This document shows positions 42,701-50,719 of a DNA stretch of 64,000 bases, piece after piece. The stretch covers positions 2,480,001 through 2,544,000 of the forward strand of contig CM102283.1 in assembly GCA_046563655.1 (NCBI GenBank), given 5' to 3'. The stretch is from Yuukianura sp. NJ FZ-2021. Taxonomy: Eukaryota. Under the pieces are notes generated by a model, which saw only the letters and a program-made list of their open reading frames with translations, ran no database searches and was not told the DNA's origin. The first letter of the stretch is position 1. Each line of letters opens with the position of its first letter. Made by a program: the position numbers and the translations under genes.

Positions 42701-45700
42701 AGACAGGTTGAGAGGCTGCTGTGGAATACATTATTGGATTCCGTTGTCTTTGGCAGTTGTCTCTTTTTGCTGTAAACTTCCAACGATTTTCTATCAAGAT
42801 TCCTGTCTACTTCCAGCATTAAATTAGGTTATGTTAGACTAACCTAACCTAACTTTTTGCAGCTCGCTAGACCGTCTTTGCAAATATTTTTGCAGTCTGG
42901 CCTCCTAGTGAGTGTAGTAATAAATGCAAAGTCTCGAAATGGAAATTGTGTTGGTACTGCGCTGTTTAAATCCGCCGCCAGTATTATTTTTGGTTTTTAG
43001 TAACTTCCACCAGGCTGCTCCTGCTGGAGGTAAAAGTGTGAAATTCTATCATTAGAAGGCCAACTGTAAGAGCAGCATCTTCACTTTTTAGTTTTTTGGC
43101 ACCAAGATAAGTTGGACTGGCGTGTTTAGAAATCGCTGAAAAGTTTGGATGCAGATTTGGTCCAAGTTTTGTGGTGTTGTTTAGGTTAGAGTCGTGCCAG
43201 GACTGGAGGAGAGTTTAGTTTTTACAGGCAGTCTGTCATCAACCAGTGGATTAGTTGTACAAAAAATGCTAGTCTTTAAAAAAGTACTAGTCTTGGGCTA
43301 GAAAAGTGCTAGTCTTTTTGGTTTGTGAGACTGGAACTAATCTTCTAATTTGAGAAGATTAACTAAAGGTGAAGTGCTAGTCATTCATCTGAGGATCTTC
43401 TGTTGACTTTTGATTTGTGGCTGTGGATTTTGTGAAGGGGGGACAGAAGATGTGTTCCCATGGACCAGGAGTCAGTTGTGACATGCTCTATTTAGCATTC
43501 TACTCGACGAACTACGCTAATGGTATGCAGTCGTCAGTTGATCAGTCGGAAGAAGATGAGGCTCAAGTTCATGATCTCAGAGAAATTCGTGATTTCGATG
43601 AAACAGATGAAGTGAGAGAGGTCAATCGACTCCTGCGTGACGTCCTATCAGGCATGTATTCTACAGGTTTTTGAATTTTTAGAAATTTAGAATTTTGAGT
43701 TTTTGAAATTTTGAAACTTACCTCGTTTTGTTGTATACCATTTTGGGATAGGCAGGTGGAACTGGACGCTGTTTTTCGAAATATTTGTAACTTTCTGGAT
43801 ATAATTTAGAGATATCGGTGCCTTTGGGATACATTCGAGATAGTACTTGTACTTCCGGAATCCGGAATACTTTTCGAGATATGGAGATACTTTACTTTGG
43901 GGATGTTTTTCGAGATACTTTTACGAGATATACTTCCAGGAATGTCTGGGTTGAGCGACTGTCACTTTGTTAGCTGAAACGGCGACATTTGTGTTTGAAT
44001 TTGGGGATTGGGGTGACAGCTAGCGTTAGAGAGTGGAGACAAGTTGAAAACGACTGGAAGCGGTTGTTGTCGCTAGGAAGCGATTGTAGCAGCGTAGTTT
44101 TGGGTTGGTAGACAGCTTGTAGGAAAGCGACAGCCTGCTGAAGCTGGAGGAAAGAAGCCTTTTCCAGCAGACTTTTTAGACGATTTTGTAATTTGTAAGT
44201 TTTTTTGTTAAAGTTAGCATGCGCTTTCTACCCAACTTTCTCTGCTTTCTAAGCTCGTGACGGTTGTGGTGGAAAAGTAACCTTGTCCTTTTGATATTGA
44301 TTTCCCTAGCTTCACTTTTTTCCAAGTCGAATGCTCTCCAGGGATTCTGGAACTGCCTCAACCTCTGTCGTAGTCGATGTTGCTGGAAAGTTGAATAGAA
44401 AGTAGAAAATTGGAGGGAATTTTTGAATTTTGAGGTTGGGCAGAAGTTGCCTCTAATTGGTATTTCCAGCCCAATTTCTTCACGTTTATCAGAATTTTGA
44501 AGTTTTTGGAACTTTTTGCGTGCATATTAAGAACGGATGATCTTGAAATATCGTAGAGGTTGGCGAACGGCGAGAGCTAGGTGGTTAGTGTGGGTGTATA
44601 GAATTCCGGGGTCAACCAGTTCAATTCCTCCAGGGGGAGCTGGATATGGATATGTTTTTTTAGTTAACTCTTCTTTTTTACACGATTGTCGTCATCATAG
44701 TTTTTAAGTCCAAGATTCACGGCAGTTGGACACACACTGTCTGCCTGTCTGTCTTTTGGATTTGATTTATGCTCTTAGGAGTCGTAATTTACGACAGTTG
44801 TTTTCGTGTCGACATAAAGCTTTTGCTGAGTTTTCCACATTTGGACTAAAGCTGAACGGAGTAGACCAAAGTTCTGGATGAGTTCTGTGTGTAGATGCAT
44901 AACTTGAGGAAGTAAGTCGTTGTCCAGGAAAATATCAGTCGTCACTTTATCCTGGACAGCAGTGTAGCTGGACTTTGACTGTTTTTAGAAAGATTAGGTT
45001 CTATTTTTTGACAAGAGTGTGACAAAGTTATATGTTTTGTGGACATTATCTTCCAAAGATTGTATATTTTTGAGTGCAAATTCCACAGTTTTACAATTCA
45101 AAACATCATTCAGAAAATGATTTTTTTTAAAGTTTGTGAAAACGGAAAGTTTTAGTGCTGGACACAAATTATGCTAAGTTTTTGCCTTGGAATCTTCAAA
45201 TTGTTGATATTTTTTGTGGTGCTGACAATGTGTGAACCAGTGGTGCTAAAATTTTCTAAATTTTGGAAATCGGGTTAGATTTTGAGAAAAGTCATGCCTT
45301 GGCGAAATCGAAAGAGACGAGTGTACCGAATGTTCAAAACGAAACATAACAATGTGAATCGCTTTATAACTAATTTCAATTGGATTGAATTTACAGACGA
45401 CGAGGAGAATGAGATTTTAGTCAAATTTTTTAAATTCCACAAGTGCTATGACCTCATCCCAACGTCTGCCAAATTGGTTGTCTTTGACACACAACTTCTT
45501 GTCAAGAAGGCTTTCTTCGCTTTGGTCTACAATGGTAAAAGCTTAAAACATAAAACAAAGTTCTTAATTTAGATTTCATGGATTGATTTATCAATTAATT
45601 GATCTTTATTCTATTTTTATCTATAGGAGTTCGGGCAGCTCCACTTTGGGACAGTGAAGAACGGAAGATGGTTGGAATGCTCACAATCACGGACTTTATC

Positions 45701-47573
45701 CGAGTTTTGCATGCGATGTACTATGACTCGGCGGGAGCTGGAAGTAAGAAATCAGCGATACATGAATCCGGACGCTGCACGATATGATACAAATCAGCGT
45801 CTTTGCGTGCCTCGCTGCTTTTTATCAAAGGCTGAACGCTGTTTTGAAACAAGTTTTGGCTGGTTTTTTTAAAAATAGGGTTGGCTTGTTTTAAAAGTTT
45901 CTGCTTTTGCAATTTGGAGTTTCTCTCTGCCTTGGTGTTTATGTCACGCCAAGTTGCGATCAATTTATTATTTACTTGGCATGATACTATAAACTGCTAT
46001 GCTTTTTTGGTAATGCTGAGACATATGTTTGTAGTTCTTAAGTTGGAGCTAACGGCCTGCTAAAGCTTGGACAGATTTCAAATTTATTTTTAGAAAGTCA
46101 TTAAGAGAATTATTGGAGGATGAGCCAAGCTTTTGAATTTTTGACATGCGCGGAAATGTTTGTTTTGCAAAGAGCATAATGGGAGTGGAAATAAAAACTA
46201 AGTGTTTTGTTTTTGTTTTGAACAGGTAAAATGTCGGAACTGGAAGAGCATCGAGTGGAGACATGGCGGAAAAGATTTTTGCTAAACAAACAGCCGCTGA
46301 TTTCAATCGATCCGGATTCATCTTTGTATGATGCTATTTGTTCACTTGTGAGTTTAAATAATATAATAATTATTATAAATAATATGTTATACATCTAAAT
46401 TATTGATATTTTTGTGTACTTGAAGGTTAACAACAGGATACATCGGCTCCCAGTCATTGACAAGCACACGGGAAACGTTCTTCATATACTTACTCATAAG
46501 CGGATCCTCAAATTCCTTTTTCTTTATGTAAGTTTTGAATATTTTTTTCAATTTGAATTTTGACTTTGAATTTTAATGGCGGGAAACCCCGAGCAGAAAT
46601 CTGGTTTGAAGGGATGCGTGAATTTTGTTTACAATTTTTGAGAAACTTGAAAAATGTTGCGAATTTTATGAGTTTATTGCAGAAAAAAGTTGCATTTGGA
46701 TAATTTTTTTACGGTTTGTTTACAGATCCACGAAATTCCGAGACCTTCCAGTTTGAATACAAAACTTCGTGATGTAAAAATTGGAAGTTTTGAGAACATT
46801 GAGACGGCGAGAGAAGAAACTCCGATAATTGTTGCCCTTCAAAAGTTCCTGGATCGTCGAGTTTCGGCTCTGCCGATTGTAGATGATCAAAATAGACTGC
46901 TAGATATTTATGCTCGGTTTGATGTGATTAACTTGGCGGCTGAGAAAACGTACAATGACTTAGATATTTCGCTCAAGAAGGTCAGTTTTCACTGAAAATT
47001 TGGAATTTTTGAAAGTATTTGTGACATTTTGAATATGTTTTTGAAAGTTAAACTGCTTATGTTTGATTGCAGGCTAACGAGCACCGGAATGAGTGGTTCG
47101 AGGGAGTTCACAAATGTACTCTGGACGATACGCTGTTCATGATACTGGAGAAACTTGTGAAGGCCGAGGTACATCGCCTGGTCGTTGTGGACGAAGAAGA
47201 CCACGTTGTTGGAGTTATTAGCCTCTCTGATATGCTACAGGTACTTTCACATGCGAAAGTTAGGTTAAAACGTCACGTTTGTTAGATTTTTGAATTCAAT
47301 TTTTTCTGTTTTTAGTACCTGGTCATGCGACCTGAACTGAAAGAAGTGAGCGTAGTTGACATTGAGGAGTCCATTCGGCATGACAAAGAAATTTTGGAAA
47401 ACGGGAAGGCAGCCTTTATCCAGGCCGAACTGGATCAAATGAGTTATCAAACGGAGCCTAAATCAAAAACTATTTCGGATCCACTGCCACTTCTACTTTT
47501 AACTGACGAAACGAATGCGGAACGAGAGAATCCAACAATATTTGAAGAAGATGAAAAGACATGTCACGGATAA
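15767..47573 (+). CDS. SNF4Agamma: 5'-AMP-activated protein kinase gamma subunit (SNF4Agamma/PRKAG-type), long isoform ~764 aa
   Basis: Phase-consistent exons: 15767-16285, 24337-24621, 25020-25169, 29853-29892, 40086-40177, 41909-41957, 45397-45534, 45627-45743, 46226-46347, 46426-46527, 46726-46980, 47073-47240, 47316-47573. CBS-region motifs: [82 protein letters not shown]. Insect-type N-terminal motifs: RPRSKSD and [17 protein letters not shown]. The core is certain; upstream exon connectivity is inferred. Confidence 0.92.
22615..22790. repeat. Degenerate minisatellite, ~24-27 bp x 6-7 (AAAGTGGAACCTTTTTGAACAGTATG)
   Basis: GTGGAACCTTTTT core recurs at regular spacing. Confidence 0.8.
28192..28425 (+). 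CDS. Candidate alternative first coding exon of AMPK gamma (MEMKADLL...GLKEFLNR)
   Basis: GC-richer ORF from ATG 28192 ending at an AGG|GTAAAC donor in phase 0, compatible with the exon at 29853. Confidence 0.65.
29333..29417. repeat. Tandem repeat, 28 bp x 3
   Basis: AGCCAGATTTTTAAGGATTTCAAAATT repeated three times. Confidence 0.85.
32870..32950. repeat. Tandem repeat, ~33 bp x 2.5
   Basis: TATAACGTCTAG(T/C)GTTTTAG units. Confidence 0.7.
37946..38765 (+). CDS. Candidate alternative first coding exon of AMPK gamma (His/Ser/Pro-rich, 273 codons)
   Basis: Long low-complexity ORF inside the gene, ending GAT G|GTGGGT in phase 1, compatible with the exon at 40086. Confidence 0.7.
40643..41495. 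mobile_element. Non-autonomous hAT-superfamily DNA transposon (MITE), 853 bp, in an AMPK gamma intron
   Basis: Perfect 14-bp TIRs CAGGCTGGGGCAAC (40643-40656) and GTTGCCCCAGCCTG (41482-41495). Perfect 8-bp TSD GTTGTGAA (40635-40642 and 41496-41503). No transposase ORF. Confidence 0.93.
43450..43666 (+). CDS. Candidate alternative first coding exon of a short AMPK gamma isoform
   Basis: ATG at 43450 and an acidic peptide. Two phase-1 donors are possible (CAG|GCATGT after 43651, CAG|GTTTTT after 43666); both fit the core exon at 45397. Confidence 0.55.
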
Positions 47574-49206
47574 AGAAGCGGAAACAAAAAAATTGGAGAG
47601 GAAAATACAAATAGTGAAATGAAAAAGTGAAGGACTGGCAGGAGCATGGAAAGAAATGGTTTGCGTGCAAAGACTAATTAAAAATATTTATTCACCCCCT
47701 GAACCTGGGCGGAGTAAAATTGCTGAACTGCAATTAAAGGCTATAATTAAATTAATTAAATAATTTACAATTTAAAGTTATTGAAAAAGGTGTAGATACT
47801 ACGAGAGTACCTAAACACGAGAAAGCCATAGACAGAGTCACGGTTTTTTAGAAAGTCGAAGTAATAACTAACTAAAAAACGAATAGACGATAATTTTTGT
47901 TATGTAATGTAAAAACAAACTGAGTTTTTATGAACTTACTAGTACCTCAGGGGGAGTTTAGCAACTTGTGTGAATTCCGTTCTTTTTGTTGTCTTCTGAC
48001 GGAATAATGTATAATAACTAATTAAATTATGAATAATAAAATTGACTAAAATGGACTACATTAGTGAAATAATGTTAAGTTTGTTACCATGTTTTGTTCT
48101 GACTAATCAGTGTCATAATTTCAAAAATTGTTAGAATTACGAAAAATTAAAATGGACTAAAAACTAATAATTAATAGCTCTCAAGTGTTAATTTTGTTAA
48201 TTTAACTTAATTAATTAAAATGGATTCACTTTAAGGTGAAAAGTGGAGGAGGGTAGGGAGTCATGCACTTTTTGGTTTTCCGACAATAATGTGATTGAAT
48301 AGTGAAAATTGTTAACTTTTAGTGAGTGTTGTTGCACATTCGGAACTTGCATTTAAAAATTCGTGGGGTAAAAATTTTTTGTGCTAAATGTTACTATTAC
48401 TACAAAGATGTAAGAAAAAAGTGAGATGAGGGGGAAAGTTAACCAAAAAATTTATATTTAAAAATTTTTTAGTGAAATCACATCGGAGTGAAAGGAAACC
48501 TTTGAAGACTGCATGCAGAGTTCAAACAAAAAATTAATTAATTAATTAATTAATCTCAGTCGAGAAGAGTATTGAAATGTTTAGAAAAGTTAAAATATAC
48601 AAAATGTTTTAACGGAGTTAAGATTCTTTTGTTTTAAATTCTGGAAGAAACAAAAAATTTTGTGGAAGAAGTTGATGATGATGAAGGAAACTTTTGGACT
48701 CTTGGGCGATAAACCGTCAATTCTGTTTTCCATATACAAATTGTAACTTGTGGTTTTTTGATATAAGGTTTTAGTCACTTTTTCATGGTTTTGTGACCTC
48801 CGTGGTCACGGGAAGGTCAAAGGTCAAATTTTGGTGGAGGACATTTCTTAAGGGAGGAAAACTGTCTCATGTGTTAATGCCTAGAAATAAATTACTAAGA
48901 CGAAGAAATGTTTAGTAAAGGAGGATGAACACTTAACAATTGAAATTTTGCCAAAAGTGGCAATTGAATAAAAAAAAAATGCATTTCTGCAAATTTTGAT
49001 TCGTTTGTGGACGTACTTTTGTTTAATTTTTTTTTAAATCAGAATTTTAGTTGTGAAATAATTTCTGCAATCGATGGTTTTAGCATGGTAGATTTCTTTC
49101 GGAGTAAAAATTTTAAAAAAGGTAATTTTTTAAATACTCAACTTTGCAAATTAAAAAGAAAATATGGTCGCGATTGTTTTTGAAATAGTTTTGAACCAAA
49201 AAATAG

Positions 49207-49323
49207 TACCCGGGGCGGGATTTGAACCCGCGGCCCTCTGCGTATTAGCGAAGGTCTTCGGGGTTTGAACCCGAAGACCTTCCCTTGTTAAGCAGATGTG
49301 ATAACCAACTACACCACCCGAGC
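49207..49323 (-). tRNA. tRNA-Val(AAC) with a 43-nt insert/intron at position 37/38 (49243-49285)
   Basis: Exons are identical to the + strand copy. The insert lies one base 3' of the anticodon. A T-run follows the 3' end. Confidence 0.85.
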
Positions 49324-49492
49324 AGCGTTATGTATCAGCGCATAATTTGTTAAGTGTTGAACACAACTGTTGTTCAACATTCACGAAAAAAAAATTCCCG
49401 TGACGAAGTTCCAACGTGGTCACGGGAAATTTTTCCGTTGCGATTGTTTTATGTACAAGATTTTTTTGGCTAGAGCTTATACACTTAATGCT

Positions 49493-49566
49493 GCTCGGGT
49501 GGTGTAGTTGGTTATCACATCTGCTTAACACGCAGAGGGCCGCGGGTTCAAATCCCGCCCCGGGTA
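49493..49566 (+). tRNA. tRNA-Val(AAC), intronless, 74 nt
   Basis: Cloverleaf: acceptor GCTCGGG/CCCGGGT, A box TGGTGTAGTTGG, anticodon arm TCTGC-TTAACAC-GCAGA, T arm GCGGG-TTCAAAT-CCCGC, discriminator A73. Confidence 0.92.
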
Positions 49567-49569
49567 CTA

Positions 49570-49578
49570 TTTTTTTTT
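49570..49578 (+). terminator. RNA polymerase III oligo-T terminator of the intronless tRNA-Val
   Basis: T9 run 4 nt after the discriminator base, mirrored by the A6 run at 49198-49203 for the minus-strand copy. Confidence 0.8.
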
Positions 49579-50719
49579 ATATTGACATATTTTAACGTCT
49601 TATATTCATTGCTTACGGCAGAGAGCTTGATTCGTTAATTCCCTGCACAGTATTTAAATAAATTTTCATTTTAGGGAGTTATATTCAAGAAAATCACACT
49701 TTTTAATCAACTTTAGCAAGAATCGTTGCATACGAATACTAAATGCTTAGTCTGTAAACGATGTATTTTGTATAATTAAAAAGAATAAGGTTCTAAATTA
49801 CGTTAACCAACCACATCTTTAAGATAAATGCAACAATTAAACAAGTAGCCCAGTTTCCATTTTAATGAATTAATTAGTGTAGCACTTAGTAAATTTAGCT
49901 TTTTTTATACCTCCTACTTGTCTTGTCAAGCTAAGCTGATTCTAGTTAGACCGAACTTCTGACTTTATGATTAGCACCATCACTCTTTTAGTCTTAAGAT
50001 ATTTTTAATTTCTAGCTAGTATAATTCTGGCCACAGCAAGTATAAGTTAGTAGAAAATTATTTTATTTGAAGGTGGGTTCACTAGATTTTTCAATTTGCT
50101 TAAATTTCCAAAAACAAAAAAAAAATTAATCGACCACGATTTTTTAAGGGAATTAAATTGTTGAATTTTGTTTTTTAAATTTTACTTTTGCATTGATTGG
50201 TTGTGTCTGGGAAATAAGTTCGAAATTGGCACAAGAAACGGAACTTTTTTGTAAAAAGGAAAACGTTGTGACAGTGAAGATGAAGACGCAGATAATTTCA
50301 AATAATCGTGCGAGTTAAATTGTATATGTTAACTAATGAATTCAGGTATTAAGTGTGATAGTCCATTAACTAAGGTGTTAAAATCCCAAAATGTCGTGTA
50401 TTATGTTGTTTTTTTTTCAAAATTGAAAAGCTACTTAGGTCAATACAGGATATGGTTCGATTTTTTGCTTTTTACTCGGAATTTCCTACGAATTTCTTCT
50501 CTGTTTTGAAGATTGTAGCTGGTCAAACTAAAAACCTAAAAATAATTTTAGCTTTTAATTTATTTAAATTCCAGAAAGATTTCAGAGATGGATTCTGAAG
50601 TGGTGAGTTCTCCAAGGCAAAAGCTGCTCGGTGGGGCTGCAATTTTGAAATGGTGTTTTTTGGCCCCACCACCATGCCCCACTTCCTTGGAACGAGAGGT
50701 GGGAAGTTGGGTGGCTCCC

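Follow-up and report, generated by a model that had tools for sequence, protein, structure and literature searches.

How does a transfer RNA (tRNA) gene come by an intron, and can the source of such an intron still be read from the DNA around it? This question is raised by two tRNA-Val(AAC) genes that lie head to head on opposite strands, one with and one without an intron, in a stretch of 64,000 nucleotides (nt) of Yuukianura sp. NJ FZ-2021 (NCBI GenBank assembly GCA_046563655.1, contig CM102283.1, positions 2,480,001 to 2,544,000 of the forward strand; the whole stretch is called the window below and is numbered from its first letter). That both genes and their head-to-head arrangement are real we regard as practically certain. 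The intron carries what appears to be an in-register copy of the adjoining exon, which favours birth of the intron by duplication within a gene of this tRNA-Val family, and the whole explanation to which we incline, with modest confidence, combines an old palindrome, a functional spliced intron and an origin of that intron by internal tandem duplication. The elements of the locus are as follows.

49198..49206, minus strand: trailer of the intron-bearing gene, CTA followed by T6 (T6 at 49198-49203), a run resembling an RNA polymerase III (Pol III) terminator
49207..49323, minus strand: intron-bearing tRNA-Val(AAC) gene, 117 nt, scored at 51.1 bits by Rfam RF00005, whose match places an insert of 46 positions in the anticodon loop
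49207..49242, minus strand: 3′ exon, 36 nt
49243..49285, minus strand: intron, 43 nt, at the canonical site 37/38, placed by its length and by sequence comparison with the intronless gene
49250..49282, minus strand: perfect hairpin of 13 base pairs (bp) with the 7-nt loop TTCAAAC, a T-arm mimic that holds GGTTCAAACCC, found by folding and by the repeat finder (repeat I9)
49286..49323, minus strand: 5′ exon, 38 nt, ending ...TTAACA (anticodon AAC and A37)
49324..49492, no strand: spacer, 169 bp, made up of two diverged, mutually homologous leaders
49493..49566, plus strand: intronless tRNA-Val(AAC) gene, 74 nt, called by ARAGORN and matched by Rfam at 63.0 bits
49567..49578, plus strand: trailer of the intronless gene, CTA followed by T9 (T9 at 49570-49578)

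Over the whole window the Rfam tRNA model RF00005 gave two matches above its gathering score of 29 (63.0 and 51.1 bits), and ARAGORN called a single gene, the plus-strand tRNA-Val with anticodon AAC, missing the intron-bearing copy on the minus strand. At a permissive threshold, Rfam found nothing credible between 49100 and 49700 besides these two tRNAs. Joining the minus-strand exons by removing the 43 nt yielded a sequence identical to the plus-strand gene at 74 of 74 nt, whose cloverleaf evaluates at −26.1 kcal/mol. An initial annotation of this DNA had described 74 identical exon nucleotides, a shared trailer of CTA plus a T run, a 169-bp spacer between the divergent genes and a precise difference in intron content; all four descriptions agree with the coordinates above, the trailers differing in the length of their T runs and the two genes being separated in sequence by one 43-nt block at the canonical intron site. 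This block begins one base 3′ of the anticodon, which places it at 37/38, and a slide of the boundary by one A is possible, the intron itself starting with A.

The intron resembles the exons on either side of it. With intron base 1 set against base 1 of the 3′ exon (offset 0) and no gaps allowed, 20 of 36 positions matched, compared with 14 of 35 at the next best offset and a maximum of 18 among 5000 shuffles, none of which reached 20. Compared with itself, the gene showed its highest self-match at a lag of 43, the length of the intron: the best window of 45 nt held 25 matches there, as against 21 at lag 44 and between 10 and 19 at the remaining lags of the range 30-55. In addition, the repeat finder returned a 22-nt direct repeat with a spacing of 43 (D3) and an inverted repeat (I1) in which the leader, 5′ exon and intron head match the leader and positions 1-65 of the twin at 87% over 75 nt, and the intron aligned locally to the mature tRNA with a score of 14 (18 of 22 identical), which none of 2000 shuffles reached (maximum 12). 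Because the intron head resembles the 3′ exon in register, the B-box-like GGTTCAAACCC within the intron starts at gene position 53, the very position of the true GGTTCAAATCC in the intronless gene; the in-register match also includes stem bases and the AGG at intron positions 6-8. At the other end of the intron, its last bases, GCTAATA, are similar to those that close the 5′ exon, GCTTAACA, apart from one deletion and one C>T. The outer copies of the duplicated material are intact and the inner copies decayed (16 in-register differences in 36), and the point at which conservation stops coincides with 37/38, give or take one base. We infer from these likenesses that the intron, with a 3′ exon head in front and a 5′ exon tail behind, is probably what remains of a tandem duplication of 43 nt that spanned 37/38. 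On this reading it arose within the family, from a template that had no intron.

The hairpin makes up most of the intron, its stem pairing intron bases 4-16 with bases 24-36. In isolation the 43-nt intron folds at −27.2 kcal/mol, the three hairpin pairs printed by the folding program have probabilities of 0.88-1.0 in the full precursor, and the free energy of that precursor has a z-score of −5.2 relative to shuffles. Apart from one change, the core CGGGTTCAAACCCCG equals the T arm of the tRNA itself. The intron's hairpin core is found a single time in the window at up to 3 mismatches, where 0 are expected by chance. The two arms of the hairpin differ in how well they match the exon in register (4 of 9 for the 5′ arm, 1 of 9 for the 3′ arm), a difference that weakly fits a 3′ arm rewritten by template switch as the complement of the 5′ arm.

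How old is the pair, and does it exist outside the assembly? Logan contigs of one sample (runs X1-X4, which may be the same data or the same sample as the window's assembly) were aligned to 48900-49900; X4 (share 0.06) gave no contig. Record 5 of X1 (223 nt, 0 differences) spans 49297-49519, running from one gene through the spacer into the other, and record 4 of X1 (327 nt, depth 24) covers 49203-49350 and 49445-49522 with 22 differing letters and 4 gaps, its spacer centre holding 99 letters against 94. On both flanks, contigs came in pairs at about 30-36x each, one contig of each pair equal to the window and the other differing at 29 of 222 positions on the left and at 34 of 340 on the right; outside these split flanks there was a single contig at about 59x. 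This pattern is the one expected of two haplotypes about 10-13% apart, both of which carry the inverted pair and the intron. In X2 and X3, more than two variants were present at some sites, which makes the sample either very heterozygous or pooled.

The two 85-nt half-spacers, that is, the leaders, align at 56 of 69 bases with several indels (score 20; shuffles 6.3 ± 2.3, maximum 17.5, n = 300), and the aligned bases therefore differ by about 19% (13 of 69). The palindrome has its centre at 49389-49410 and 49413-49434, where the repeat finder (I3) reported 22-nt arms, 86% complementary, with 2 nt between them; 3′ of the T runs, the similarity between the arms is not above chance (score 17.5; shuffles 11.5 ± 2.6, maximum 20.5). 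The leader likeness had initially been put at about 18 nt, an estimate that was right about its existence and too short about its extent, which is that of the full half-spacers, and the inverted duplication proposed at the same time is supported by homology over the whole spacer and by the near-continuous centre. Given that the leaders are about 19% diverged and that a haplotype 10-13% diverged has the same pair with the intron, the pair is old: judged by its sequence, it did not arise by recent duplication but forms a local palindrome of long standing, about 370 bp in size, within the nuclear genome of a hexapod. The exons, with 0 differences in 74, contrast with the 19% in the aligned leaders (0.81^74 is about 2e-7), and in a pair of this age their identity therefore needs purifying selection or conversion. 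Of the two causes first offered for exon identity, recency is thus not supported, and conversion stands alongside purifying selection.

Some shorter repeats accompany the palindrome. The 14-nt direct repeat GT(C/T)GCGATTGTTTT occurs, at 93% identity, at 49167-49180, 3′ of the minus-strand gene, and at 49437-49450, 5′ of the plus-strand gene; it may be the remnant of an older repeat unit, and an AATCGC motif resembling it is also present in the downstream loose ends of other Val copies. The 14-nt CGTGGTCACGGGAA occurs exactly twice, at the spacer centre (49415-49428) and 614 bp upstream (48793-48830), where it lies within an inverted GTGACC...GGTCAC that is followed by AGGTCAAAGGTCA; the upstream site bears what we take to be a likeness to a direct repeat of two nuclear-receptor half-sites. 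In the permissive Rfam search, microRNA models scored the spacer-centre palindrome at 19-25 bits against gathering scores of 70-90, and these matches are not credible.

The diverged haplotype also bears on the hairpin. Three differences are itemised for record 4 within the gene: 49257 T>C and 49275 A>G in the intron, and 49233 G>C in the variable loop. The two in the intron, at its positions 29 and 11, are partners in the stem, and a U-A pair in the window is thus a C-G pair in the other haplotype. This two-sided change can be read as compensatory, with either selection on RNA structure or template switching as its source.

This tRNA-Val belongs to a multi-copy family. The depth in the exon bins was about 480-760 in X1 compared with about 65 in the flanks, and loose ends of contigs revealed at least 3-4 other copies with a common upstream flank that is unlike either leader at this locus. 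The intron bin, by comparison, was covered by one contig only, in one of the four runs, at about the depth of a single haplotype. The intron-bearing copy lacks the marks of a tRNA pseudogene or of a tRNA-derived short interspersed element, its exons being identical at 74 of 74 nt to a high-scoring tRNA and its terminator being present. Two contigs contain a shorter insert: relative to the coordinates of the plus-strand gene, one from X1 (depth 150) has 10 nt inserted behind 49529, and one from X2 (depth 124) has 10 nt inserted behind 49525 together with C>T at 49529. The two insert alignments, known from the contig difference tables alone, spell the same string, TTAACA-CGCAGTAATA-CGCAG. The 10 nt read as CGCAG, the head of the 3′ exon, and then a copy of TAACA, the end of the 5′ exon, in which the C>T of the 43-nt intron's tail recurs. 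The 10-nt form thus appears to be a second intron form of the same family with the same head-plus-tail build.

Comparison with metagenomes widened the view of this isoacceptor. A scan for the same exons with any insert of 4-64 nt at 37/38 gave 0 matches, and a scan for the shared D arm and anticodon arm gave 9 loci with 12 tRNA calls. As candidate relatives, all 9 were rejected because their acceptor and T arms are different, and hence they do not help to polarise gain versus loss. One of them (L008:1986-2066) is a tRNA-Val(AAC) with other acceptor and T arms and a 7-nt intron, TTTGGTT, at 37/38. Another metagenome sequence of 1171 nt from an unrelated eukaryote (L004:1-1171) holds four tRNA-Val(AAC) genes on alternating strands (+,−,+,−), and inverted Val pairs are therefore not unique to the window.

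Can the intron-bearing gene be transcribed and its intron removed? Pol III depends on an internal B box and on a T run downstream of the gene, which acts as the terminator, with none inside the gene. In the intron-bearing gene, GGTTCAAATCC is at position 96, the second, B-box-like GGTTCAAACCC at position 53, and T6 follows the gene, while a pattern search for the A box had no match in either gene. The intron contains no run of four T, and Pol III should therefore read through it. A scan for bacterial-type promoters and terminators stayed at chance level and is irrelevant to Pol III genes. A canonical tRNA intron forms an anticodon-intron (A-I) pair and presents its 3′ splice site in a small bulge. 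With the cloverleaf imposed as a constraint, the optimum for this precursor (−53.8 kcal/mol) pairs U33 with A(−1), A34 with U(−2), and the first two bases of the intron with its tail, so that the 5′ site borders a loop of 3 nt and the 3′ site is next to a bulge of 1 nt. Two alternative pairings of loop and tail exist because the loop starts with the self-complementary UUAA and the intron tail copies it. The intron is putatively spliced, a reading based on conservation that follows the exons, on the decay of the inner copies and on the lack of a T4 run within the intron.

Taken together, these observations suggest to us that a tandem duplication of about 43 nt, or an unequal exchange between tandem copies, spanned 37/38 and thereby placed an intron between two intact exons. 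Such an intron would consist of the first 27-36 nt or so of the 3′ exon and the last 8 nt or so of the 5′ exon, since decayed, and would not have been imported. The duplicated T arm would then have been extended to the perfect 13-bp hairpin, maybe by a template switch that rewrote the 3′ arm, and the hairpin would keep the pseudo-T arm from mispairing with the tRNA body while leaving a B-box-like motif as far from the A box as the native B box is. Owing to the self-complementarity of U32-U33-A34-A35 in the loop, the copied tail would pair with the real loop and form an intron-anticodon helix next to the splice sites, allowing the tRNA splicing endonuclease and ligase to remove the intron and to produce the same tRNA as the intronless twin does, both genes having been preserved intact.

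A broader proposal, which we put forward tentatively and would sooner expect to fail than to hold, is that canonical tRNA introns can be born in one step by short tandem duplications spanning 37/38, with the self-complementary positions 32-35 of tRNA-Val(AAC) supplying, in this family, an instant helix flanked by the splice sites. If true, one-step birth would explain why tRNA-Val(AAC) exists in three states in one genome (no intron, 10 nt and 43 nt), and the locus would offer an uncommon instance of a eukaryotic tRNA intron whose source is legible in its sequence.

Several observations weigh against a spliced intron born by tandem duplication. Most of the in-register likeness is contributed by the 15-nt T-arm core, which could have been kept or have arisen by selection for a B box at its native spacing, or could derive from a different tRNA that shares this common T arm. 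Between the intron head and its supposed source 16 of 36 positions differ, a greater divergence than that between the two leaders (13 of 69 aligned bases); this excess could stem in part from a single template switch and in part from pressure against mispairing of the pseudo-T arm. The intron may be older than the palindrome, the plus-strand twin having then lost it precisely. The textbook A-I fold (U32:A(−3), U33:A(−4), A34:U(−5), with a 3-nt bulge) evaluates at −47.5 kcal/mol, 6.3 kcal/mol worse than the constrained optimum, although A-I type helices are not strictly required by the eukaryotic enzyme according to the available part of one source (PMC4090602, cited to the same extent below). 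The only further Val(AAC) intron observed, the 7 nt of the metagenome gene L008, falls outside the exon-copy rule: its agreement with the 5′ exon tail is limited to 2 of 7 positions, and what its GGTT shows instead is complementarity to the anticodon. The rule is therefore not general. Of the 10 differences that record 4 has in 49203-49350, plus two gaps, only the 3 given above are itemised, and the exons may hold more. Finally, for the reference haplotype none of the contigs listed spans 49211-49296, the stretch that includes its intron, and X2 has no depth in bins 49240-49477, nor has X3 at 49240-49273 and 49342-49477. This hole in coverage at the intron proves nothing by itself, as a perfect hairpin may break k-mer contigs.

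Three other explanations compete with a duplicated and spliced intron in an old palindrome. The least credible by far, to which we give hardly any weight, is that the arrangement is a fold-back chimera of the assembly or that unrelated dispersed genes happen to lie side by side, the two outcomes that the initial annotation had named as fatal to its proposal. The best-matching run may be the assembly's own data, and one X3 contig oddly joins 49325 to 49493, its shorter side measuring only 30 letters; in all likelihood this is a further Val copy whose alignment was broken in two. However, the arms are far from a perfect reverse complement: the leaders agree at 56 of 69 bases with indels, including about 7 nt of leader indels, the intron is present in one arm only, and records 4 and 5 both bridge the spacer, one of them from the diverged haplotype. 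Chance adjacency of dispersed genes is contradicted by leaders that are homologous to each other and by the different, common upstream flank of the other copies; the two genes are each other's closest kin. More serious, though in our judgement improbable, is a disabled copy, in which the internal duplication is unspliceable and the minus-strand gene is a pseudogene whose exons are kept identical by conversion within the palindrome or the family. That the textbook A-I structure is not the predicted optimum speaks for it, as does the wording of the available part of a nematode study, in which lone intron-bearing predictions among intronless copies are called only 'possible introns' (PMC12530127), and conversion between tRNA genes is known (PMC4090602). 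Against it, conservation ends at the canonical splice junction to within one base, and the 13-bp stem has remained perfect through a two-sided change between haplotypes whose flanks are about 10-13% different. The terminator and the box motifs are likewise intact (the B box, that is; the A-box pattern gave no match), and exons that measure only 38 and 36 nt and flank a heterology of 43 nt would presumably be poor substrates for conversion.

We also consider it unlikely that the intron is functional but not duplicated, its T-arm and B-box likeness having come from insertion of foreign or other tRNA sequence or from convergence, with position 53 favoured by the spacing requirements of TFIIIC. 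The concentration of the likeness in the 15-nt core CGGGTTCAAA(C/T)CCCG, outside of which only 6 of 21 positions match in register, speaks for such an origin, and A-B spacing that depends on an intron can alter expression or TFIIIC-dependent functions (PMC4090602), whereas yeast TFIIIC tolerates variable spacing (PMC4090602). A B box, however, needs only about 11 nt, and the match extends beyond it to the stem bases and to the AGG at intron positions 6-8. Nor would the likeness of the intron tail to the 5′ exon tail be accounted for by selection for a B box, and the 10-nt insert of other copies has the same head-plus-tail build without any B box.

A Val(AAC) intron is unusual but has parallels. 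Eukaryotic tRNA introns range in length from 6 to 133 nt, and isodecoder genes tend to be either all intron-bearing or all intronless, mixtures having different origins (PMC4090602). Since the two copies described here have homologous leaders, the locus is a counter-example, by common descent, to this all-or-none tendency. The canonical introns of Metazoa, in tY(GUA), tI(UAU), tL(CAA) as well as tR(UCU), share with the present intron the site, a length within the 6-133 nt range and a fold-back near the anticodon stem; here, in contrast, the isoacceptor is another one, an intronless copy with identical exons lies 169 bp away, and the intron is exon-like. Similar in distribution is the nematode Pristionchus pacificus, in which, in the available part of the report, tV(CAC) has 1 gene with an intron and 15 without, tG(GCC) and tL(CAG) likewise showing such 'possible introns' (PMC12530127), so that one or few intron-bearing genes again occur in a mostly intronless isodecoder family of an animal. 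That part of the report offers no evidence on origin or constraint, whereas the present locus offers a twin of common descent, a compensatory change between haplotypes and a duplication signature. In the yeasts Lachancea thermotolerans (tRNA-Ala(UGC)) and Kluyveromyces lactis (tRNA-Gly(UCC)), lineage-specific introns, proposed to be recent gains, sit at the canonical site while the relatives are intronless (PMC4090602); there, all isodecoder copies are intron-bearing and the source of the intron is unknown (PMC4090602), whereas the present locus points to a duplication at the DNA level.

With regard to structure, the excerpted account of Drosophila tric31905 describes another arthropod tRNA intron with a stable, covarying fold, although it lies in tRNA-Tyr, is unusually large and is conserved across drosophilids (PMC4536317). 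By analogy, the 43-nt hairpin intron would be a candidate tRNA intronic circular RNA (tricRNA). Template switching creates and repairs perfect RNA stems, as stated in the available part of PMC8794818, and the present hairpin is reminiscent of such cases in that a perfect 13-bp stem surrounds an older 5-bp T-stem core and pairing has been kept by a two-sided change (compare PMC8794818); it differs from them in that the template switch is a suggested route here, weakly supported by the arm matches of 4/9 versus 1/9.

How eukaryotes gain tRNA introns is described as unknown in PMC4090602, where a route through RNA cleavage, extension and reverse transcription is suggested, and the accessible part of a 2026 preprint on Asgard archaea, which tested tRNA-gene copying, mobile elements and reverse transcription, reports no general route of gain. 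A literature search that covered few subscription journals found no proposal of a duplication origin for eukaryotic tRNA introns, and nothing on nuclear tRNA introns of springtails. For spliceosomal introns, a tandem-duplication model exists in which the duplicated segment supplies both ends of the intron and the spliced product is unchanged. The product would be equally unchanged at the present locus, whereas the machinery and the signals differ between spliceosomal and tRNA introns. Should the duplication reading hold, the locus would exemplify intron gain without a mobile element or reverse transcriptase, from which two predictions follow: tRNA introns of recent birth should resemble the 3′ exon where they start and the 5′ exon where they end, and anticodon loops with self-complementary positions 32-35 should gain introns more often. 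Should it fail, the locus would simply add to the sporadic tRNA copies with introns that animal genomes contain.

A gene about 2 kb upstream of the tRNA pair encodes an AMPK gamma (CBS-domain) protein, with exons at 45279-47285 on the plus strand. Whereas a search of the Protein Atlas with a COQ5-like exon returned mostly bacterial clusters and was uninformative about affinity, one AMPK gamma exon of 79 aa matched springtail proteins first, with 76-78% identity. Its identity to the remaining proteins listed, which come almost entirely from named insects, is 62-75%.

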